This document shows, in pieces, positions 11,095 through 58,982 of a stretch of 64,000 nucleotides of DNA. Position 1 is the stretch's first letter. The number at the start of each line of letters is the position of its first letter. The translations under genes were made by a program, and so were the position numbers. The notes under the pieces are model-generated. The model saw nothing but the letters and a program-made list of their open reading frames with translations. It was not told the origin of the DNA and searched no databases. This DNA comes from Candidatus Staskawiczbacteria bacterium RIFCSPHIGHO2_02_FULL_42_22 (GTDB lineage Bacteria > Patescibacteriota > Minisyncoccia > Minisyncoccales > Staskawiczbacteraceae). The stretch is from positions 8,578 through 72,577 of the forward strand of contig MHOT01000010.1 in the NCBI GenBank assembly GCA_001820175.1, given 5' to 3'.

Positions 11095-11101
11095 AACATT
11101 C

Positions 11102-11209
11102 GTCATTGCGAGCCCGCAGGCGTGGCAATCTCCGTCGTTATGAGTGGAGATTGCTTCGCAGGGTGCAGTACTGTACCCTGCTTCGTCGCTGTGGCTCCTC
11201 GCAATGACG
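11102..11209. repeat. GTCATTGCGAG nested-palindrome repeat, copy R1
   Basis: cgtcattgcgag...gattgcttcg...ctcgcaatgacg. Confidence 0.8.
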
Positions 11210-11220
11210 AAAGTGAAAAT

Positions 11221-12680: not shown

Positions 12681-12809
12681 CCCTCACTCTCCTGCACGCA
12701 TCCGTCGTCATTGCGAGGAGCCACAGCAACGAAGCAATCTAGAGCAAAGCTATGCACATACCCTAGATTGCCACGCCTGCGGGCTCGCAATGACGAGAAG
12801 CGTGAGGGA
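12681..12809. repeat. GTCATTGCGAG repeat, copy R2 (outer arms ccctcac/gtgaggg)
   Basis: Read directly. Confidence 0.8.
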
Positions 12810-14574: not shown

Positions 14575-14584
14575 CTCTAACTAT

Positions 14585-14746
14585 TAGACCTGTTGCGTAA
14601 TAAGATTAACAAGCGAAATGAAGCAATTTTGGCTAAAAAATCAGAAAAATAAGGAGGTTTGCCTAGAGGGCAAGCCGACGCATTTTTATGGTTTTTTAGA
14701 CGAAATTGCAAATTACAGCGTAAATTCTTATTACGCAACAGGTCTA
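14585..14746. mobile_element. MITE, TAGACCT family (A1)
   Basis: TIRs tagacctgttgcgtaataag / cttattacgcaacaggtcta; core gaggtttgcctagagggcaagccg shared in reverse with 19656-19862. Confidence 0.8.
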
Positions 14747-14764
14747 TTAAATAATAATTAAATT

Positions 14765-15682
14765 ATGAATCCGGAAAATCTAGAAACTAGAGACCGAAAT
14801 GAGTCCGACTTGGGGGTTATAGTATTTGAAATAGAAAATTTATTGCCTACTCAAAAATTTGATAAAAAAATATTTCCCAGGAACGAAAAACCGATTGGAG
14901 AAATGATGAAGCTTTCAAATGGACTAAGAGAATCAATACTGCCAGAGGGTGGGCTAAACATATCTTCTGCTGATCAGATAGATGAAATAACTTTAGACCT
15001 TTATAATTTATGGAGGGATGCCCAGTTTTCATTGGGATTTCAAAAAATATTAGAAAACAAAAAAATAATTCCACGGGAATCTTTTTTTATCGGAGATATT
15101 GGTTCAGCTCATTGCATATCAGTGGGATTGGCCATGATGAATAACAATATACCTTGTAATTTTGTTTTTAAAAAAGATATAGGACCCAGAGTAAAAGATA
15201 TGATGTTACTTATCGGTGACGAATTAAATAATAGAAATAAAATAACTGTTCCCGCAGGCGCCGCTACATTAACGGATTGCCATCGAAATGAACCCTATAA
15301 ACCGAGGGAGAAAAAATATAGTATTCAACCCTCGGATTTCCCTGCGCCAGAAGAATTAAAAAATAAGGGTATTACACAGATTGTGCTTCTTAAAGAAGTA
15401 GAAACTGGAAGGGAATTTCATAACTTTGAATATCCATCAGACGATAATTCGGTATTGAATCCATATAAATTAAGTGGAATGGAAATTATTACTATAGGAA
15501 TTGATGAGGTATGGCGATACAATTCCGTGCATGGCGGTGAAAAGGATCGCGAACTATTTGGAAGGGACATAAATTCACAGCGTTCTCTTAAAGAAGCATT
15601 AAAATCTATAATTACAGTAGGGGATCGCAAAAAATTATGTGATTTATTGTCTGGTAGAAATATTGAAAAAATTAATCCTTAG
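14765..15682 (+). CDS. Hypothetical protein (low-GC, bracketed by two MITEs)
   Basis: 305-aa ORF; stop codon lies inside the TIR of the next MITE. Confidence 0.5.
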   Translation: MNPENLETRDRNESDLGVIVFEIENLLPTQKFDKKIFPRNEKPIGEMMKLSNGLRESILPEGGLNISSADQIDEITLDLYNLWRDAQFSLGFQKILENKKIIPRESFFIGDIGSAHCISVGLAMMNNNIPCNFVFKKDIGPRVKDMMLLIGDELNNRNKITVPAGAATLTDCHRNEPYKPREKKYSIQPSDFPAPEELKNKGITQIVLLKEVETGREFHNFEYPSDDNSVLNPYKLSGMEIITIGIDEVWRYNSVHGGEKDRELFGRDINSQRSLKEALKSIITVGDRKKLCDLLSGRNIEKINP

Positions 15683-15840
15683 GCCTCGTCCGTAAATAAC
15701 GTCCACCTTTTCATCCAATCTGCCCGCCATCTTGGCTCCAAAAAATGCTCGGCATAACTTTATTATGCCTCACATTTTTTTGAGCCAAGGCGACAGGCAT
15801 CTTGGCGAAAATCCTGGACGTTATTTACGGACGAGGCCTT
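15681..15840. mobile_element. MITE (AGGCCTCGTCCGTAAATAACGTCC TIRs)
   Basis: aggcctcgtccgtaaataacgtcc...ggacgttatttacggacgaggcct. Confidence 0.75.
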
Positions 15841-15859
15841 AGATATTGAAGATATATAA

Positions 15860-17117: not shown

Positions 17118-17169
17118 ATAGCGGAGTCTGGTATACGCCGACACCTTGAGGTATAATAGAATAATATCT

Positions 17170-17814
17170 ATGAAACCTTTAGGAAAAGTTAAAATTATAT
17201 GGACGCCACAGTTTGCTTATGCGATAGGGTTATTGACTACTGATGGCAGTCTTTCAATTGACGGACGCCATATAAGTTTTACATCTAAAGACAAACAGCA
17301 GGTTGATAATTATAAGCTTTGCTTTGGTCTTGAAAATAAAATTGGAAAAAAGGCGAGAGGAGGAGAAACGGAAAAAAAATACTATGTATTACAGTTCGGA
17401 GATGTGAATTTTTACCGGTTTTTATTAGGCATTGGATTGACGCCAAACAAATCTAAAACACTTGGAAGTTTAAAGGTTCCCGAAAGATATTTCTTTGACT
17501 TTCTAAGAGGACATTTGGATGGGGACGGTTATTTTTATTCCTATTGGGATCCACGCTGGAAGTCGAGCTTCATGTTTTACATAGGTTTTATTTCTGCAAG
17601 TAAAAATCATATTGAATGGCTCAGGGATAATATTGCAAAAAAGTTGGGAATAAAGGGCCATATTACAGCGAGTATTAGTAGTTCAGTTTATCAGTTAAAG
17701 TACGCTAAAACTGAAACGCTAAAATTATTACCCAAATTATACTATAGCGAAAATGTCGTCTGTTTAGATAGGAAACGTAAAAAGATTGAAAAAGCTTTGT
17801 TGATTGTGAGATAA
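17170..17814 (+). CDS. LAGLIDADG homing endonuclease (free-standing)
   Basis: YAIGLLTTDGSL and LRGHLDGDGYF motifs; ATG 17170 preferred because GGTATAAT (-10) lies inside the tracked 5' extension. Confidence 0.8.
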   Translation: MKPLGKVKIIWTPQFAYAIGLLTTDGSLSIDGRHISFTSKDKQQVDNYKLCFGLENKIGKKARGGETEKKYYVLQFGDVNFYRFLLGIGLTPNKSKTLGSLKVPERYFFDFLRGHLDGDGYFYSYWDPRWKSSFMFYIGFISASKNHIEWLRDNIAKKLGIKGHITASISSSVYQLKYAKTETLKLLPKLYYSENVVCLDRKRKKIEKALLIVR

Positions 17815-18162: not shown

Positions 18163-18215
18163 TTGTTAAACCGCTATGTTATAATATAAGCATAATATAA
18201 CTAACAGGTTTGATT

Positions 18216-18878
18216 ATGAAACTTGAAGAAAAAAATTTAGCAATACATTTACGAAAACTAGGATGGTCAATGAATGAAATCAAAAGTAAAATAGGGGTTT
18301 CCAAAAGTAGTGTTAGTTTGTGGGTAAGAGATATACAGCTCACCGATAATCAAAAAATGAAACTGTCCCAAAAAGGACTAACAAAAGAGTCAATTGAAAA
18401 AAGGAGAACAACCAGACTTGGCAGAGAAAACGCACGAAGACAAATTATTGTTGATGGTGCTAAAAAAGAAATACCTGGTTTATCAGACCAAGAGTTAAAG
18501 CTTGTAGGAATAGCTTTATATTGGGGAGAGGGAGGAAAAGCTAATCGTGGGTCGGTCCAATTATCAAACGGAGACCCCCGGATTATACAGTTGATGATGA
18601 AGTTTTTCAAAAGAGTTTGCAAAGTACCTAAAGAAAAATTTAGAGGACACATCCATATACATCCCCACCTTAACGTAAAAAAATCAGAACATTACTGGTC
18701 GTCCATCTCCGGCATTCCGTTAAACCAATTTTATAAAACCTACTCTAAGCCAAATAAAAGTAGTCAAAGCAAAAAGAATTCATTGCCATTTGGAACATTT
18801 GATATTTACGTACACAACACTGAACTATTTTTGAAAATTAAAGGGTGGATCGAAGCTGTATATGATAATGTTATTTAG
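18216..18878 (+). CDS. HTH + LAGLIDADG-like (GLYWGEGGK) endonuclease-like protein
   Basis: N-terminal HTH (LGWSMNEIKSKIGVSKSSVSLWV), LVGIALYWGEGGK motif; paralog at 52223-52912. Confidence 0.45.
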   Translation: MKLEEKNLAIHLRKLGWSMNEIKSKIGVSKSSVSLWVRDIQLTDNQKMKLSQKGLTKESIEKRRTTRLGRENARRQIIVDGAKKEIPGLSDQELKLVGIALYWGEGGKANRGSVQLSNGDPRIIQLMMKFFKRVCKVPKEKFRGHIHIHPHLNVKKSEHYWSSISGIPLNQFYKTYSKPNKSSQSKKNSLPFGTFDIYVHNTELFLKIKGWIEAVYDNVI

Positions 18879-19002: not shown

Positions 19003-19073
19003 GCGGGTATAGCACAATGGTAGTGCATTTGGTTGCCAATCAAAGTACAGGGGTTCGATTCCCCTTACCCGCT
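19003..19073 (+). tRNA. tRNA-Gly, anticodon GCC
   Basis: Acceptor GCGGGTA/TACCCGC, loop TTGCCAA, T arm AGGGG-TTCGATT-CCCCT. Confidence 0.8.
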
Positions 19074-19174
19074 CAAAATTTTCCGAGAAAATTTTGAGCG
19101 AGGTTCGCCCTTTTTGGGCGACCCGCTCTCAATTAAAAAATTTGAGCACAAATTTTTGACCGAGAATTGTACTA

Positions 19175-19337
19175 TAGACCTACTGCGTAAAGATTTTTCT
19201 ACTGCGCCGCGCATATTTTGGCTGCGAAAAGCCAATCGCTCATCGACAGATTTAAGTTCAATATGCCTCTTCGCGCTTTGCTTTTCTCGCTACAAAATAT
19301 GCGCGGCTCGCTACGAAAACCTTTACGCAGTAGGTCT
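19175..19337. mobile_element. MITE, TAGACCT family (B1)
   Basis: tagacctactgcgtaaag...ctttacgcagtaggtct; reverse-oriented near-identical copy at 38291-38454 (both yield the same 40-aa pseudo-peptide in the ORF track). Confidence 0.85.
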
Positions 19338-19351
19338 TATCTATTTCCTGT

Positions 19352-19609
19352 ATGTTTTATATTTATATTCTCCAAAGTCTCAAAGATAGTAAAACTTACG
19401 TTGGATATACGAATAACCTGGAAAGAAGATTAGTTGAACATAATTCTGGAAAAAATATTACTACGAGAAATCGCACACCATTAGAATTGCTATTTTCTGA
19501 AAATTTTGAAACCTCAAAAGAGGCAAGAGAAAGAGAATTGTATTGGAAAAGCGGAGGCGGAAGAAGAAAGTTAAAAGAGTTTTTTGAAAAAGGTTTTCCA
19601 GTCACTTGA
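19352..19609 (+). CDS. GIY-YIG nuclease domain protein
   Basis: FYIYILQS..DSKTYVGYTNNLERRLVEHN. Confidence 0.8.
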   Translation: MFYIYILQSLKDSKTYVGYTNNLERRLVEHNSGKNITTRNRTPLELLFSENFETSKEARERELYWKSGGGRRKLKEFFEKGFPVT

Positions 19610-19655
19610 GTCGCCTTTTGGGCGATTTTTTAGTGGTTATTCTAAAATTTTACAA

Positions 19656-19862
19656 TAGACCTGTCCCTAAATAAGAATTTACGCTGCAATTTGCAGTTTT
19701 GGCCCGAGACGCAGGCGTAATTGGCCGCGGCCAATTCGCCCCGTCTGGAGCAAACCTGCTAAAATTCATCGGCTTGCCCTCTAGGCAAACCTCTTCATTT
19801 TATCAGATTTTCGCTCAAAACTGCTGCGTTTCGCTTGTTAATTTTATTTAGGGACAGGTCTA
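19656..19862. mobile_element. MITE, TAGACCT family (A2)
   Basis: tagacctgtccctaaataag...cttatttagggacaggtcta. Confidence 0.8.
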
Positions 19863-19983
19863 ATGTAAAACCGCGAGGCGCGACTTTTCGGAACGGACGG
19901 AACGGTTCCCCCCTTACAAAAACAATGGGCCGCGCTTCGCGCGGCCGTCCAACTCGTCGGTCGAAAATCAAAAAGTTTTATAG

Positions 19984-21539
19984 TGGAGTACATTTACAAC
20001 GAGGATCGAACCCATTTTATGGAGAACGAGTGAAGAACGCCGCGCGCCTGCGGGCGCGCGGCACGACGAACGAACGGCAACCGCACGGACAGGCAAAAAT
20101 TTTCTCCCCCAGACCAGAATTTTTGCGTGCTTGCCAAAAAACTTTTTGTGATTTTATGTTTTTTATGATAGTATCAAGGTAAAATTATGCCAGAAAATAT
20201 TGGGGAAAAATTGTCATCCGCGGACGAAAAAGAACCAACTACGAAAGAGTTGGAAATTCCAAAATCAGCTTCCGATGAAGTAAATCCGCGCAAAAAACGC
20301 ACAACCGATCTTGCCCCGCCCGTAGAAATACAGGCGAAATTGGAAAAGGAAGTAGAAGATCTTTCTAAAGAAGAAATAGAGAGGATTATGGAAAAGGTGG
20401 AAGACATTAATTCTATGGGAACAACGAGCCATGCAGTGCGAGAGGGTAGCGGTTATGTCTCAGCCAAATCTCCTGAGAGCAAAAAAAGGAGAAATTTTAA
20501 TATCCTTTCTAATATCCTTAACCATGGCATTATTGGTGGTCCAAGGAACTGGAATGATGCGGATTTTTTGAGTAACGAAAAAAGTATAAAAGCTATTTTT
20601 AAAAACCTATCATATGCTAGACGCGCGGGTCATGGTTGGCCTACTTTCGTTGTCGATATAAATGAATTGCCTTCCGATAGGCCATTTTCTAGAGTTGGGT
20701 GGATAGGAGAAAATGGTATTGCACTTATTGTTGATAAAGAATTTGCAAAAACCAAACGAGATAGGTTGTATAAAAAACGTATCTATAGTAGGGGTGGAAA
20801 GGAAAAGAGCGGTAATACTACAACTTCAACAAGAATTCCCCCGAGGTTTATTAAGGGTATTGTTATTAATCCCGTGGCCAGTGTTAAAGCTATAGAAGAA
20901 GAGTCAAAAATTTTAGAAAAACGAGAAAATATTATCAATGAAATATTGGAATTGCGAAAATTTCTGTATTCACAAGTAGAGAAGCAACTTGGAGATAAAA
21001 CAAAATTTATTGTATCTATCACGGATGAGGTCAAAAAAAGTCATAGTGATGTTATGTTGAAATTAAAGGAGTTAAATTTGCAAATTGCATTAGTTTATAA
21101 GGAAATTGAAAAGATTAACCCTGATCTCTATCATCAATTACATTATCCAAAAATTCTAAATCCGTTCACGCAGCCAGAAAATAAAGATGTACAGTCCTTT
21201 TTTGAGGAAGTTATAAAAACGGAACGACAAAGCAATGTACTGTTACCCATTTATAGTCTGGATGGTGATTTATTGTGGCCAAAAAAGATGAATTATGAAG
21301 AAGTAAAAAAGTTTGTTGAAGAAAGAGAAAAAGTAAAAGAGAAAGGCGAGCAGTAGAATAATTCCATAAAATCACAAAAAGTTTTTTGGCAAGCACGCAA
21401 AAATTCTGGTCTGGGGGAGAAAATTTTTGCCTGTCCGTGCGGTTGCCGTTCGTTCTTCGTGCCGCGCGCCCGCGGGCGCGCGGCGTTCGTCACTCGTTTT
21501 CCATAAAATGAGTTCGATCCTCGTTGTAAATGTACTCCA
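19984..21539. mobile_element. Single-ORF element bounded by 175-bp terminal inverted repeats (19984-20158 and 21365-21539)
   Basis: Arms differ at about 5 internal positions by eye; each arm holds the palindrome gccgcgcgcc(t/c)gcgggcgcgcggc; spurious ORFs 19835-20182(+) and 21293-21493(-) share the peptide ERQPHGQAKIFSPRPEFLRACQKTFCDFM. Confidence 0.8.
20187..21356 (+). CDS. Hypothetical protein carried between the 175-bp inverted repeats
   Basis: 389-aa ORF, acidic/lysine-rich N- and C-termini, no transposase motif I recognise. Confidence 0.55.
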   Translation: MPENIGEKLSSADEKEPTTKELEIPKSASDEVNPRKKRTTDLAPPVEIQAKLEKEVEDLSKEEIERIMEKVEDINSMGTTSHAVREGSGYVSAKSPESKKRRNFNILSNILNHGIIGGPRNWNDADFLSNEKSIKAIFKNLSYARRAGHGWPTFVVDINELPSDRPFSRVGWIGENGIALIVDKEFAKTKRDRLYKKRIYSRGGKEKSGNTTTSTRIPPRFIKGIVINPVASVKAIEEESKILEKRENIINEILELRKFLYSQVEKQLGDKTKFIVSITDEVKKSHSDVMLKLKELNLQIALVYKEIEKINPDLYHQLHYPKILNPFTQPENKDVQSFFEEVIKTERQSNVLLPIYSLDGDLLWPKKMNYEEVKKFVEEREKVKEKGEQ

Positions 21540-21571
21540 GTTTCTTTGTCATTTTACGATGAGGAAAAAAT

Positions 21572-21913
21572 ATGAAAATTCCAGAAAAAGTTCCACAAAA
21601 AGGTTTTTACTATCATTACAAGCACAATCAAAATGGCTTAGTGAATAACTACGCCTACGAGGTGATTGGTGTGGGTTGCCATACCGAAGATGAGTGTCGG
21701 CCAGAAGATGCCAATATGGTTGTTTATCGTCCACTCTACGAAACTTTTGTTTACACTGCAGGGAAATTGTTTGACCTGCGCCCCTTGGAAATGTGGATGG
21801 GTAATGTTTCCAAGGATGGAGCTACCGCTCCTCGATTCACAAAAATTACGGATCTTTCGGTAATTGGAAAACTTGAAGAAATAAAGAAACAAATGTACGG
21901 TTCTCATAATTAG
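21572..21913 (+). CDS. DUF1653-like protein
   Basis: GFYYHYKH......YEVIGVG.HTE.....MVVYRPLY pattern. Confidence 0.55.
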   Translation: MKIPEKVPQKGFYYHYKHNQNGLVNNYAYEVIGVGCHTEDECRPEDANMVVYRPLYETFVYTAGKLFDLRPLEMWMGNVSKDGATAPRFTKITDLSVIGKLEEIKKQMYGSHN

Positions 21914-22214
21914 ACCTGTTGCGTATTAAGGATTTGCTGCAAATTGCATATTGCACCTGCGGGGATGCCCTGCGGGTCAAGGGCTGAAAATTTGCTATAC
22001 CTAGTATAATTTGTCGCTCGTTCGAAAAAGAATAATTGCTATTCTTCTTTTTCTCTCTCGCTTAGCAAATTATAATTTTTCGGTCAAGATGTGGGTAAAT
22101 TTGTAGCAACAAATTTCCCCATCTCCGGGCCTATGGGCAAGCCGAAAAATTCTATCAAATTTGCAGCTCGAAATCTTGAATTTTCGTAACAAACCTTATT
22201 TAGGGACAGGTCTA
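21911..22214. mobile_element. Chimeric/nested MITE, TAGACCT family (A3)
   Basis: Left TIR of the gttgcgtattaag type, right TIR of the ccctaaataag type; carries an extra about 80-nt module that recurs inverted at about 44360-44440. Confidence 0.75.
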
Positions 22215-22223
22215 ATACTGTTT

Positions 22224-27602: not shown

Positions 27603-27673
27603 AGGCCCGGATGGGAATTGCACCCATGTACACGGTTTTGCAGACCGTTCTCTGGCTACTTGAGTACCGGGCC
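27603..27673 (-). tRNA. tRNA-Cys, anticodon GCA
   Basis: Acceptor GGCCCGG/CCGGGCC, stem ACGGT/ACCGT, loop CTGCAAA, T loop TGCAATT. Confidence 0.8.
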
Positions 27674-28438
27674 ATACATTTTTAATGTTTCGAGTATGTT
27701 GTTATCAATTTTTCGATTACGATTTTGAAAATACTTTATAAAATTATCTCTTTTTCTCTTAAGAAACAAAGTATCTCCTAATTGATTGCCATAAAAAACT
27801 TGAAACCATCGCATGCTTTCTGAGGTTGAGTATTTTAGACGATACGCTCGACTACCAAAATACATCTTTCCACTTCTAAATCCCATACTTTCAAATTTAT
27901 TACGTAATCCTTCTAAGAATACTTTGCTGCCACTGGTAAAAATAACTGCTAGTCCCCTAGAAATTTCTTGGCCGTACTTTCCCTTTCCTTTCATAATATG
28001 CACACAACCATCTCCATCAAAATATCCTCTGACAAAATGACTTAAGCAATCCACGGGAATATCGTGGGGGAACTCAGTTATTAAAGATTTTCTAGGTGTT
28101 AAACCTAGCTTTAATAAATCTGCAAACATTTCTCGACTGCCAATCCTTAACCTAAAAGCTTCTCTACTTTTGTATGCTCCATTTAAATGGACGGCTATTC
28201 TCTCGGGCTTAATTTGGATCTTGTGATTCGAAGACAATGCTATCTTTATCTTTTCTATAATCTCCTTATCGGCACTATCAAAACTTACATATTGGGTTCT
28301 GGAAATAACTGAATCCATAATATTTCCATCCGCATACATAAATCCTAAAACATACGCCATTTCTGGTGTCCATGTTTTGAAAAAATCCTTATTGAATTGA
28401 TAACGATTGTGACCTCCGCGATGGTCTAAAGAAAACAT
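27656..28438 (-). CDS. LAGLIDADG homing endonuclease (two motifs), 3' end overlaps tRNA-Cys
   Basis: MAYVLGFMYADGNI and VRGYFDGDGCV; the last codons GPVLK* are the tRNA-Cys 5' acceptor/D-arm. Confidence 0.8.
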   Translation of the reverse strand: MFSLDHRGGHNRYQFNKDFFKTWTPEMAYVLGFMYADGNIMDSVISRTQYVSFDSADKEIIEKIKIALSSNHKIQIKPERIAVHLNGAYKSREAFRLRIGSREMFADLLKLGLTPRKSLITEFPHDIPVDCLSHFVRGYFDGDGCVHIMKGKGKYGQEISRGLAVIFTSGSKVFLEGLRNKFESMGFRSGKMYFGSRAYRLKYSTSESMRWFQVFYGNQLGDTLFLKRKRDNFIKYFQNRNRKIDNNILETLKMYGPVLK

Positions 28439-31892: not shown

Positions 31893-33340
31893 GTAACTGC
31901 TCACAACCCCGAGTGAAATCACAGGCAAATATGTGGATAAAAAAACGTCATTTTCCCTCGTAAAACGTGGTAAAATGAAGCCATGCCACGAGGTAAATTA
32001 AGCAACGAAAGCAGGCTTCAAATCAGGGTTACCAGACTCCAGAATAGTGTTAGAATCCTCCAAGAAAAAGTATCAAACCTGCAACGTCAAAACAAAGTTA
32101 AGGATAGAAAAATCGAAATCCTGGAAGCATTGCTGGTCAACAAAGAAGCCCAGCGCAAGGAGTTGCTTTCGTATTTGTACAAACCAGGCAAGAAAGATGG
32201 CCCAGTCAAACCCAAAGGCAAAAAACCTGGCAGTCCCGCCCATCACCGCCCAATTCCCAAAGAAGAAGATGTCAGTGAGCGCCATGAGTACCGCCTTAAC
32301 AAATGTCCCATGTGCACCCACCCTGTTGGCGATGCGGTTGATACGGTAGTTAAGTGGGAAGAAGATATCGACTTAAAACCCCGGCCGATCATCAAAAAAC
32401 ATACCATCACTCGCCACTGGTGCGGCCACTGTGAAACATATGTGAAAGCCAAGAATATTCCCGACACCTCCCGTATCGGTATCAATGTGATGGGGTACAT
32501 TTTGTACGCAAGGTATAGGCTCCGCCTGCCACTCAACAAAATCCAAGAAAGTTTAAGGGATTTGTATAACTTCAAGATATCTGAAAATGAAATCGTCCAA
32601 AAACTCAAAGAAACCCAAACCCTGTTCGGTAAAGACTACGAAGCCATCACCATTTTAATCCAAGAGGCCACGAAGGTTTATGCCGATGAAACTGGTTGGA
32701 AGATGGAAGGAAAAAGCTGGTGGCTGTGGGTGTTTGTCACTAACCGGGGCGTCCAATACGTCATTGAAGACACGCGTGGCAAAGGCGTGGTTCAAAAAGC
32801 TTTGGGAGACAAGAAAGACCGAGTTATCATTTCTGACGGTTATGCTGCTTACCAAAACCTCCCCGGCGACAAACAGCAGTGCTGGGTGCACCTGTTGCGA
32901 AAAGCCAAACTGCATTCCTTGATGCTCTACGAAGATTTAGTGGTTTTGTACAAGAAACTACTCCTTGAATTGGAAAAACCGATACCAGAAAGACAATCTG
33001 AAAAATTACTCCAAGACTTCGACCTTCTTTTAAAAAAAGAGTATTCAGATATTGAAGTCCACCTAGTCAAACAACGAATGCAAAAACACCGGCCATTTCT
33101 TTTCACGTGCTTAAAGTACGAAGGAGTTTTGCCCGAAAACAATACAGCTGAACGTGCTATTCGATTGCAGGTGGTCATGCGAAAAATCTTTGGGAGCTCA
33201 CGTTCGCTGGCAGGCGTGCAAGCACATCAAGTCAATTCTTCGGTCGTTGAAACTCTGCGCCGCCAGAATCCAGACGCTTCTTTTTTCGATGTAGTCCTGC
33301 CCTTGCTTCAGAAACGTCGCTCGGGGTTGTGAGCAGTTAC
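31893..33340 (+). mobile_element. IS66-family insertion sequence (single-ORF type) with 8-bp target-site duplication
   Basis: IRL gtaactgctcacaaccccgag / IRR ctcggggttgtgagcagttac; gctcggcg at 31885-31892 and 33341-33348. Confidence 0.85.
31983..33332 (+). CDS. IS66-family DDE transposase
   Basis: Zn-finger CPMC...CGHC, YADETGW, ISDGYAAY, QQCWVHLLR, NNTAERAIR. Confidence 0.85.
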   Translation: MPRGKLSNESRLQIRVTRLQNSVRILQEKVSNLQRQNKVKDRKIEILEALLVNKEAQRKELLSYLYKPGKKDGPVKPKGKKPGSPAHHRPIPKEEDVSERHEYRLNKCPMCTHPVGDAVDTVVKWEEDIDLKPRPIIKKHTITRHWCGHCETYVKAKNIPDTSRIGINVMGYILYARYRLRLPLNKIQESLRDLYNFKISENEIVQKLKETQTLFGKDYEAITILIQEATKVYADETGWKMEGKSWWLWVFVTNRGVQYVIEDTRGKGVVQKALGDKKDRVIISDGYAAYQNLPGDKQQCWVHLLRKAKLHSLMLYEDLVVLYKKLLLELEKPIPERQSEKLLQDFDLLLKKEYSDIEVHLVKQRMQKHRPFLFTCLKYEGVLPENNTAERAIRLQVVMRKIFGSSRSLAGVQAHQVNSSVVETLRRQNPDASFFDVVLPLLQKRRSGL

Positions 33341-33365
33341 GCTCGGCGGTAACTGCTCACTGGCC

Positions 33366-33550
33366 AAATCGTCATTGCGGGGTGCACCGAAGCAGGGTAC
33401 AATACTGCACCCTGCGAAGCCAGGCATAGTATTGTGCCTGGCGAAGCAATCCCATCGTCACTCTTGTTTAGATTGCCGCGTCGTCCACGATTGCGATCGG
33501 GACTCCTCGCAATGACGGCCGGAAGGCGCACGAGGTGTGAGGGGTTACGC
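33366..33550. repeat. GTCATTGCGAG repeat, copy R4
   Basis: cgtcattgcgggg...cgaagcaatc...ctcctcgcaatgacgg. Confidence 0.75.
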
Positions 33551-38290: not shown

Positions 38291-38454
38291 AAGACCTACT
38301 GCGTAAAGGTTTTCGTAGCGAGCCGCGCATATTTTGTAGCGAGAAAAGCAAAGCGCGAAGAGGCATATTGAACTTAAATCTGTCGATGAGCGATTGGCTT
38401 TTCGCAGCCAAAATATGCGCGGCGCAGTAGAAAAATCTTTACGCAGTAGGTCTT
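38291..38454. mobile_element. MITE, TAGACCT family (B2), inverted copy of 19175-19337
   Basis: aagacctactgcgtaaag...ctttacgcagtaggtct, begins 15 nt after the pilin stop. Confidence 0.85.
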
Positions 38455-39698: not shown

Positions 39699-39900
39699 TA
39701 GACCTGTTGCGTATTAAGGATTGTCGCGAAAATTGAAGATTTTGGATCAGAAATTTGATAGAATTTTTCGGCTTGCCTCCAGGCCCGGAGATGGGGAAAT
39801 TTGTTGCTACAAATTTACCCACATCTTGACCGAAAAATTATTGAAAATTTCTGGCCAAAAGATGCAATTTGCAGCAAATCCTTAATACGCAACGGGTCTA
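39699..39900. mobile_element. MITE, TAGACCT family (A4); inverted relative to A3 and lacking its nested module
   Basis: tagacctgttgcgtattaagg...ccttaatacgcaacgggtcta; starts 2 nt after the pilin stop. Confidence 0.8.
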
Positions 39901-39998
39901 ATATAGGACTTGCGCGCTTGCGCCGCTCCTTGAGATTGCTTCGCTGCGGCTCGCAATGACGCAAATACGCAAACCCCAAAATCGTAACATCGTGAATT

Positions 39999-41249: not shown

Positions 41250-41298
41250 CATTCCCCGGATTTCTTTATCAAGTATTTTAATGGTACAATAAAAAGAA

Positions 41299-41483
41299 AC
41301 TCTAAATTCTAAATCCTAAACTCTAAACAAATCACAAATTCCAATGTTCTAAATTTCAAACCGTTTTAGAATTTAGAGTTTAGAATTTAGAATTTCGTTT
41401 TCTTTTTAGGATTTAGAGTTTAGAATTTAGAATTTCGTTTTCTTTTTAGGATTTAGAGTTTAGAATTTAGGATTTCTTTTACG
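41299..41483. repeat. Word-stutter hairpin whose right arm is a roughly 40-bp unit repeated three times
   Basis: ttagRatttagagtttagaatttagRatttc(gttttc)ttt x3 facing ctctaaattctaaatcctaaactctaaac. Confidence 0.8.
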
Positions 41484-44261: not shown

Positions 44262-44498
44262 TGAATCACGAAATGCTTTCGAGGGATTTTCTCCAAATTT
44301 TGAGCGAAAATGTGATAGAATTCTGAGGCATAGCAAGCTCTGCCGAAGAATTATAATTTGCTAAGCGAGAGAGAAAAAGAAGAATAGCAATTATTCTTTT
44401 TCGAACGAGCGACAAATTATACTAGGTATAGCGCATTTGCAGCCAAAATTTGGAGAAAAGACCCGAAAAGTCTTTTCAAACTGGCATTTCGTGATTCA
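44262..44498. mobile_element. MITE (TGAATCACGAAATGC TIRs) sharing an internal module with 21911-22214
   Basis: tgaatcacgaaatgc...gcatttcgtgattca; the internal ataatttgctaagcgagagagaaaaagaagaatagcaattattc... is the reverse complement of 22000-22080. Confidence 0.75.
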
Positions 44499-51200: not shown

Positions 51201-51252
51201 AGGCCAGCCGAGGCAAAGAAATGTTGCAACATTTCTTTGCCTCGGCTGGCCT
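51201..51252 (+). terminator. 24-bp perfect hairpin after the protease gene
   Basis: aggccagccgaggcaaagaaatgt tgca acatttctttgcctcggctggcct. Confidence 0.6.
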
Positions 51253-51914: not shown

Positions 51915-52098
51915 ATATGGACATCACATCCAGAAACCGCACTAAAGTCGCCGGCGGTTTGGCAATCTTGGGCGGCTTGGAACAAAAAATATGCGAGGCG
52001 TAGCCGAATCTACGCCGAACATATTTTTTGTGAAAACTGCCCAAGATTGGCAAATCCGGCAAGAGTTGGAGTGCGGTTTCTGGATGTGATGTCCATAT
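51915..52098. repeat. 184-bp nested palindromic element with GAAACCGCACTAAAGT core
   Basis: Outer 28-bp perfect arms atatggacatcacatccagaaaccgcac / gtgcggtttctggatgtgatgtccatat; inner nested inverted repeats. Confidence 0.85.
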
Positions 52099-58840: not shown

Positions 58841-58982
58841 GAATTTGAAATTTGAAATTTACAATTTGAAATCAATACTAAATGTTTCAATGTTTTAATT
58901 TGAAAACACGACGTATTTAAACATTTTAAATTTCAAATATTTCAAATTGACTTCAAATTTCAAATTGTAAATTTCAAATTTT
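58841..58982. repeat. Word-stutter hairpin (GAAATTT/CAAATTT words)
   Basis: gaatttgaaatttgaaatttacaatttgaaatc ... gacttcaaatttcaaattgtaaatttcaaatt. Confidence 0.8.

Follow-up and report, generated by a model that had tools for sequence, protein, structure and literature searches.

What kind of genetic unit is formed by a single open reading frame (ORF) set between two long inverted repeats, with no recombinase encoded beside it? The question is raised by a 64,000-nucleotide stretch of contig MHOT01000010.1 (positions 8,578 to 72,577 of the forward strand), hereafter the window, from Candidatus Staskawiczbacteria bacterium RIFCSPHIGHO2_02_FULL_42_22. An original prediction, made from the letters of the window, drew attention to a 1.56-kb element at 19984-21539 that encloses an ORF of 389 amino acids (aa). 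Bacteria of the candidate phyla radiation (CPR), or Patescibacteria, have tiny genomes, and their acquisition of accessory genes is poorly understood. The answer reached here, held with about even confidence, is that the 1.56-kb unit is a member of a family of small, recombinase-less cassettes. In several related lineages of groundwater Patescibacteria, such cassettes lie within inverted arms of ~180 bp and fill a variable slot on the 3' side of tRNA-Gly(gcc). The element is filed as closest to the non-autonomous cassettes, as a variant new to that kind.

The arms and the gene they enclose

The element is made up of two arms and one gene. H1, H2 and H3 are the three palindromes of each arm, listed from the inner end to the tip.

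19984 to 20158, minus strand: left arm, with H1 at 20093-20126, H2 at 20039-20062, H3 at about 20005-20033 and the tip block at 19984-20021, ending in ...GTAAATGTACTCCA.
20187 to 21356, plus strand: cargo ORF of 389 aa, a divergent member of an uncharacterised CPR-wide family.
21365 to 21539, plus strand: right arm, an inverted copy of the left, with H1 at 21397-21430, H2 at 21461-21484, H3 at about 21490-21518 and the tip block at 21502-21539.

A repeat search finds the arms to be 175 nt each and 97% complementary, with a spacer of 1206 nt. The original prediction had counted about five internal mismatches between them; alignment gives exactly five, at left-arm positions 20012, 20024, 20034, 20049 and 20067, and none in the inner 91 nt (20068-20158). 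Self-BLAST of the pair returns E = 2e-80 and no other copy pair in the window, and an arm profile scan of the same 64 kb likewise finds two copies and no more. The perfect GC-rich palindrome predicted for each arm is present at 20039-20062 and 21461-21484, where chance would yield none. Two spurious ORFs in the arms encode a common peptide, as had also been noted and as their translations confirm.

The repeat is genuine and not an assembly artefact, because the arrangement and its arm-specific single-nucleotide polymorphisms (SNPs) recur at 100% identity in many independent assemblies. At least six of them span both arms. They were retrieved by look-up of the 389-aa ORF and its two neighbours, and comprise one 78-kb scaffold, two JGI contigs and several MEGAHIT k141 contigs (L024-L029, L032).

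All arms, including those of the related loci described below, have the same order of parts: H1, H2, H3 and a conserved 38-nt tip. H1 consists of an AT-rich stem (GCAAAAATTTTCT / AGAAAATTTTTGC) closed by a G-rich loop of 10 nt. In the right arm of the window its stem is 11-13 bp and its loop is GGTCTGGGGG; the loop is inverted in contig L062. H2 is GC-rich, a perfect 24-nt palindrome in the right arm of the window. Its sequence and length vary by lineage, and it is perfect through its centre in five of six lineages. H3 has the form CTCACTCGTT...AATGGGTTCGAG. The tip, with ...GGTTCGA(G/T)CCTCGTTGTAAATGTACTC(C)A as its final sequence, resembles the T-loop and terminal CTCA/CTCCA of a tRNA. The T-arm-like outer tip of the original prediction is present, and what it resembles is the tRNA 3' end at which a homologous element sits. 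The tip of the primary arm is adjoined by a canonical minus-strand terminator, located within a flanking block termed flankT.

Rfam has no match to the arms, at gathering thresholds or at E = 10, and ARAGORN detects no tRNA or transfer-messenger RNA in them. Folding z-scores range from -1.8 to -2.1, and the alignment fold of the arms contains local hairpins only, with almost no covariation. Because covariation is nearly absent and Rfam has no match, the hairpins are read as probable DNA-level features or plain terminators and not as a structured RNA gene. Searches for the arm DNA in phages, plasmids and viral contigs, for an exact 26-mer from the arm core in the metagenome collection, and for other contexts of the spurious arm ORF used as a protein query all returned no match.

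The 389-aa protein has no significant match in Pfam, PHROG, NCBIfam or PADLOC and no match among PDB sequence profiles. Its AlphaFold model reached a pLDDT (predicted local distance difference test) of 55 in a first run and 68 in a second run with 111 sequences, and Foldseek of the predicted structure against the PDB gave coiled-coil noise and no functional lead. A profile search places it in a family with 719 representatives at 50% clustering, found in 18 species-level Patescibacteria genomes of several classes; none was found in phage and plasmid collections. The original prediction had recognised no recombinase motif in the ORF, and the family is indeed not that of a recombinase. The profile and structure searches proposed at that time thus established a family with conserved motifs, but gave no function.

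Family motifs are LSPEVIEKIMEKVxDI, FFNIVGR, RIPPRxFxGIV and LPIYDxxGNLLWPKxMxYEEVKKFVEER. The window copy retains EEIERIMEKVEDI, RIPPRFIKGIV and LPIYSLDGDLLWPKKMNYEEVKKFVEERE, lacks FNIVGR, and is lengthened by an additional helical insertion (residues ~233-330). Its relatives occupy varied chromosomal contexts without long inverted repeats, with one exception (L022, described below). The arms, rather than the 389-aa gene, define the element, and the gene is cargo.

A promoter candidate for the ORF is the sigma-70-like TTGCCA-18-TATGTT at 20131-20160 (plus strand). The ORF starts 27 nt downstream of this site, which is situated at the inner edge of the left arm; the right arm has a mirror copy that points into the 3' end of the ORF. 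The inward-facing promoter-like stretch of the original prediction is present in both arms, but it is a weak match (9/12 to consensus) and is not kept in the arms of other lineages; the region has 11 such sites against 5.8 +/- 2.6 expected. An arm promoter acting independently of orientation was considered and rejected: the -35 element is not conserved, and the cargo promoter of the related locus L058 lies outside the arm. The window cargo would be a single accessory copy of the CPR family with a weak promoter of its own at the inner edge of the arm, and the hairpins of the right arm may serve it as a terminator.

Homologous arms around other cargo

The search for further copies of the arms, suggested with the original prediction, found homologous arms around different cargo in metagenome contigs of related lineages. 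Contig L030, in which a different left flank is joined exactly at the tip, pointed to a sister organism, and this organism has arm-like sequence beside a 3D-domain gene. A scan of the metagenomes for the conserved tip GTTCGANCCTCGTTGTAAATGTACTC yielded nine loci, nearly all of this locus type, and in three of them two tips face outward as in the window. One such arrangement (L058/L065) has arms of 184 nt that are 97.8% identical and 2.8 kb apart, around a CorA-like 393-aa gene and ORFs of 305 aa and 177 aa. Another (L063) has arms of 186 nt, 99.5% identical and 2.0 kb apart, around three small membrane proteins. A fourth case is combined from L060 and L061, which overlap at 100% across 418 nt; its arms are 94% identical with their tips outward, and its cargo is HicB/HicA (HicA at 34 bits against a cut-off of 27) with a 124-aa ORF. 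With the window included, four unrelated cargos occur in the paired outward-tip layout. Comparison of these loci shows the arms to be the conserved part and the cargo to be interchangeable.

Arms are 94-99% identical within a genome (94% in the L060/L061 comparison, 96-99% for the others in the identity matrix) and 75-87% identical between lineages. Because the arms of one genome are far more alike than orthologous arms of different lineages, these values indicate concerted evolution, in which sequence continues to be exchanged between the two copies. Long repeats kept identical by recombination are known from the yeast 2-micron plasmid and from chloroplast inverted repeats, of which these arms are reminiscent.

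The surroundings of the arms in the window include three features that recur in the comparison with other lineages.

19003 to 19074, plus strand: tRNA-Gly(gcc), separated from the element by 910 nt that hold two MITE-like (miniature inverted-repeat transposable element-like) elements and a GIY-YIG gene.
19845 to 19983, minus strand: flankT, a conserved block of ~140 nt that adjoins the primary-arm tip in most lineages, with an intrinsic terminator (GGCCGCGCGAAGCGCGGCC + CATTGTTTTT) at 19946-19928 on the minus strand.
21540 to 21571, plus strand: right flank, ending at the DUF1653 start codon, weakly similar in inverted orientation to the initial ~25 nt of flankT (AAAATGACAAAG versus AAAATCAAAAAG).

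The weak match of the right flank to the inverted start of flankT suggests that the ancestral repeat may have extended slightly beyond the tip, a state retained in L063 and L060/L061. The tip adjoins at least five different flanks. In L064, flankT lies directly 3' of tRNA-Thr, in the order tRNA-Thr...CTCCA, flankT, tip...CTCCA. L059, a Hainich groundwater contig of a more distant lineage, contains at 76-436 an array of tip (+), flankT, tip (-), GC hairpin and tip (+). This array is a cargo-less foldback of ~140 nt in which one tip pair surrounds ~55 nt.

The clearest view of gain or loss comes from the sister species, where both an empty and an occupied site are available (junctions are marked here by a slash). 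In the empty site of L047, L050 and L052, tRNA-Gly(gcc) reads ...CCGCTCA/TTGCAACTAAAAACC (TTGCAAC...) and is followed by a hairpin and then the 3D-domain gene. The occupied site of L058 reads ...CCGCTCA/ATTTTTTCTTAAAAAATT/GAGTAC..arm-cargo-arm..GTACTCA/TTGCAACTAAAAACC. By BLAST, L058 and L047 differ by a 3.2-kb insertion/deletion with collinear flanks and CTCA at both junctions, and the insertion has a 17-nt filler on one side. The 4-nt CTCA is the only direct repeat at the junctions; the long repeats are inverted. The right tip of L058 (GGTTCGA..CTCA) loosely copies the tRNA end, and the left tip, its inverse, forms an 11-bp palindrome with the last tRNA bases. Alignment of these contigs shows that the whole unit comes or goes in one piece, bounded precisely by the tips, at the tRNA 3' end. 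The original prediction had named a non-autonomous cargo element among its possibilities. The unrelated cargo within homologous arms and the block insertion/deletion in the sister species support and extend that proposal.

A possible mechanism and the competing explanations

The attachment site of a site-specific recombinase is an imperfect palindrome, and after integration its half-sites flank the element as inverted repeats. The tips fit the role of half-sites because an integrated palindromic attachment site leaves its half-sites inverted. In the cassette reading, the two outward tips would be half-sites of one palindromic attachment site, and a recombinase encoded elsewhere would exchange this site with a target that resembles a tRNA 3' end. 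CTCA, common to the tip and the tRNA end, is a possible crossover core. A tip-to-tip circular or palindromic junction would read ...GTACTCCA/TGGAGTAC..., possibly with a short AT spacer between the two. The enzyme would have to act in trans because none is encoded in the element or within ~10 kb, and we infer movement by such a trans-acting recombinase.

Among candidate enzymes, a serine recombinase is the most plausible, given an analogous locus in a different Patescibacteria lineage (L022, JBAZBX010000001.1, 3678-6976). There, tRNA-Gln is followed by two repeat-bounded units. In the first, a large serine recombinase of 495 aa is enclosed by a perfect inverted repeat of 75 nt. The second, immediately after it, encloses an XRE regulator together with a cargo-family member in an inverted repeat of 123 nt (99%). 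The terminal CAGCCA of tRNA-Gln is present at all three boundaries in alternating orientation, and the layout parallels that of L058: tRNA end, short palindrome, cassette. For large serine recombinases, attP is an imperfect palindrome, so that the integrated element lies between inverted half-sites. The likeness to such elements is that the L022 enzyme is flanked by the tRNA end on one side and by the first tip of the analogous cassette on the other. The differences are that the arms are 4-5x as long as known attP half-sites and that the window element has no recombinase gene. L022 is thus a possible lead to the type of enzyme and not evidence for it.

A recombinase site alone does not account for arms so long and so nearly identical. 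Homologous exchange between them would keep the two copies alike and could occasionally flip the cargo. A more far-reaching proposal, possible though doubtful, is that of a mobile-cassette class not previously described in CPR bacteria. The excised arms, joined head-to-head, would form a ~370-bp perfect palindrome with a central recombination site, and a helper or host recombinase would insert this structure into targets resembling tRNA 3' ends.

Several findings weigh against movement of the window element as a cassette. No recombinase gene lies in it or within ~10 kb to its left or right. Across the remainder of the 64-kb window, Pfam coverage finds one transposase only, of the IS66 family, ~10 kb away and with ends unrelated to the tips. 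No excised form, circular junction or second location within one genome was seen in the assemblies. The window orthologue of the tRNA-Gly(gcc) that marks the insertion point in the sister species lies 910 nt to the left of the element and does not adjoin it. No empty site of the window lineage was found among the contigs, where L046 has the left flank followed by unrelated sequence. Arms of ~180 nt far exceed the length needed by any known recombinase site, and in L063 and L060/L061 the repeat extends 8-25 nt beyond the tip, which is thus not always the repeat boundary. The homology of the L022 arms to those of the window is not significant against shuffles, and the analogy is one of architecture only. 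Lastly, positions 1-760 of L030 have the window element at 100% identity joined exactly at the tip to the sister-species flank. An assembly chimera is as likely here as a real transfer between lineages, because the two arms that meet have an identical 47-nt stretch at that end. In L046, 41 unrelated nt (778-818) follow the left flank of the window in place of the arm. Both are short contigs of one sample (ERZ4903185) and could be chimeras or real variants.

An alternative, unlikely on balance, is that the arms have no dedicated mobility. They would be a passive inverted segmental duplication, or two intergenic palindromic repeats (like repetitive extragenic palindromes, bacterial interspersed mosaic elements or MITEs) that flank a fast-evolving locus and undergo gene conversion. 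The differences in cargo would then be the outcome of normal gene turnover, or of homologous replacement following DNA uptake. The genome is full of palindromic MITE-like intergenic repeats, some 100% identical between distant sites; the arms themselves are made of palindromes, their boundary differs by lineage, no recombinase is nearby, and an inverted junction in contig L004 (below) is explicable only by homologous exchange in the inner 91 nt. However, the arm is low-copy: the window has two, and the entire metagenome collection yields nine loci, almost all belonging to this locus type. The paired outward-tip layout also recurs with four unrelated cargos. The sister-species insertion/deletion, exact at the tips and the last tRNA base and with CTCA repeated, is a signature of site-specific insertion and not of drift.

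It is quite improbable that the element is a non-autonomous DDE-type transposon, with long terminal inverted repeats and passengers, that is mobilised in trans as a mobile insertion cassette (MIC) or a cargo-carrying MITE. Conservation of its inverted ends peaks at the outermost tip, it holds passengers and no transposase, a cargo-less miniature exists in L059, and the window has a candidate source of transposase:

31893 to 33340: IS66-family insertion sequence (IS), with a single 449-aa DDE transposase at 31983-33332, 24-nt terminal repeats GTAACTGCTCACAACCCCGAGTGA and an 8-bp target duplication GCTCGGCG.

The ends of this IS (GTAACTGCTCAC...) and its 8-bp duplication differ from the tips, however, and the cassette has no target-site duplication in the window, where the flanks ...TTTTATAG/TGGAG and CTCCA/GTTTCTTT contain no direct repeat. 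Between L058 and L047 there is only CTCA, which is common to the tRNA end, and the one-sided 17-nt filler. The cassette also keeps the same neighbourhood in most lineages and is single-copy per window. Described mobile insertion cassettes and cargo MITEs are alike in their inverted ends, passengers without transposase and cargo-less miniatures (PMC4337579, PMC5444012); they differ from the present element, which has no target-site duplication, has ends unlike those of the sole IS in the window, is low-copy and is found at one locus. Two further identities were considered and rejected. IS200/IS605-type ends, suggested by the hairpins and the lack of target duplication, do not agree with non-palindromic tips that are inverted and not on one strand. 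For an integron with attC and intI, there is neither an integrase gene nor an array.

A programmed invertible segment, in which the arms would be inversion sites of a phase-variation switch altering expression of the gene or its neighbours, is very improbable. The original prediction had raised inversion, and one scaffold (L004/L037) is inverted: its right flank leads into an arm with all five right-arm SNPs and then into the 5' end of the ORF, which is thus opposite in orientation relative to the DUF1653 and ATPase genes. The inverted H1 loop of L062, and the varying orientation of the cargo relative to flankT among lineages, agree with inversion too. Every other assembly has the reference orientation, though, and L004 ends in 89 nt of unrelated sequence and has a private SNP. 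The tails of L004 and L046 matched none of the sequences compared. Short-read assemblers may mis-thread a 91-nt identical stretch. The L004 junction is an exchange, or an assembler error, within the inner 91 identical nt; tip recombination cannot yield it, and as evidence of inversion L004 is dubious. No invertase gene adjoins the element, such a gene occurring only at the non-homologous L022. Because a flip between symmetric arms leaves the sequence upstream and downstream of the gene unchanged, flipping of the cargo is probably an expected by-product of arm exchange and not a switch.

An RNA-level device, either a structured small RNA from the arms or, as originally proposed, a 175-bp stem that clamps the mRNA together with antisense transcripts that start in the right arm, is scarcely credible: the three hairpins per arm, the canonical minus-strand terminator past the primary-arm tip and the mirror-image promoter-like sites speak for it, but Rfam at E = 10, the z-scores and the near-absent covariation do not, H2 is perfect through its centre in most lineages (a DNA-level property), no arm promoter is conserved, and a promoter candidate within the arm excludes the left arm from the transcript.

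Neighbouring repeats, known systems and the meaning of the locus

The window contains many other repeats and mobile genes. Besides the IS66-family element, a solo extra IS66 end lies at 33349-33360. A 163-nt foldback occurs at 19176-19338 and 38291-38453, 100% identical, 19 kb apart and in opposite orientation. Further palindromic MITE-like intergenic repeats are found at 14582-14749, 15678-15842, 41290-41480, 51201-51252 (a perfect 52-nt palindrome), 51915-52098 and 58842-58980. MITE-like elements with ends TTTTACAATAGACCTGTCCCTAAATAA lie on either side of the cassette region, at 19648-19870 and 21909-22216, and the motif TTATTTAGGGACAGGTCTA occurs 3 times against 0.01 expected by chance. Pieces of 21982-22214 recur at 39699-39902 and 44343-44444. 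A foldback repeat (TCGTCATTGCGAG...CTCGCAATGACGA) at 11100-11210 and 12705-12796 flanks tRNA-Ile and two genes, and a related piece is present at 33370-33517.

Free-standing genes resembling homing endonucleases lie among the tRNA genes: a LAGLIDADG gene at 17146-17814, a member of the helix-turn-helix (HTH) 'WVRDI' family at 18210-18878, a GIY-YIG gene at 19352-19609 and a second LAGLIDADG gene at 27656-28438. A paralogue of the HTH family is an insertion/deletion between the sister contigs L047 and L058. ARAGORN also calls a tRNA-His with the unusual anticodon ATG in L003 (11858-11935).

Two described systems resemble the cassettes. The dif modules of Acinetobacter plasmids are Xer-dependent and are bounded by 28-bp pdif (plasmid-borne dif-like) sites on Rep_3 plasmids (PMC13141974, PMC6449649). 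As in those modules, the units are discrete, have inverted boundary sites, occur in alternating arrays, carry interchangeable cargo that includes toxin-antitoxin genes, may be inverted between relatives and rely on a recombinase outside the module (PMC13141974, PMC6449649). Alternating orientation of tRNA end and tip is seen in L058, L059 and L022, and the window itself has two inverted tips only. Here, in contrast to dif modules, arms of ~180 bp with three palindromes occupy a chromosomal slot by a tRNA in CPR bacteria. No match to the general dif consensus ATAATRTAYATTATGTHAANT occurs in the window at up to 3 mismatches; the dif site of these CPR bacteria may differ from that consensus.

The second system is that of cis-mobilizable elements (CIMEs), which are integrase-less, integrative, flanked by att sites and often located at tRNA genes (PMC5704250, PMC7563491). 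The cassettes are like CIMEs in having no recombinase of their own, in lying at or near a tRNA 3' end, in bearing a copy resembling that end at one side, and in the CTCA at both L058 junctions (PMC5704250, PMC7563491). Presence and absence at a tRNA 3' end in close relatives, as expected of CIMEs, is found in L058 versus L047, L050 and L052. CIMEs have direct att repeats and derive from integrative and conjugative elements (ICEs) or integrative and mobilizable elements (IMEs), whereas the present repeats are long, near-identical and inverted, and no parental integrase-bearing element is known for these arms.

The locus is a compact and recurrent architecture: a swappable slot within long, symmetric, tRNA-like-tipped arms, which acts as a unit of gain and loss without an enzyme of its own. 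Ultra-small CPR genomes otherwise have few mobile elements. If the proposed mobile-cassette class is real, tRNA-mimicking palindromic 'landing arms' would shuttle accessory genes (toxin-antitoxin pairs, transporters and CPR-specific proteins) between these genomes. Should the exchange be site-specific, the arms would represent a new type of recombination site, probably with a partner recombinase, in organisms that are not yet genetically tractable. Should it be purely homologous, the locus would be a clear natural case of cassette exchange maintained by concerted evolution of inverted repeats. Under either mechanism, the arms may be used as a search marker for accessory genes in these genomes.

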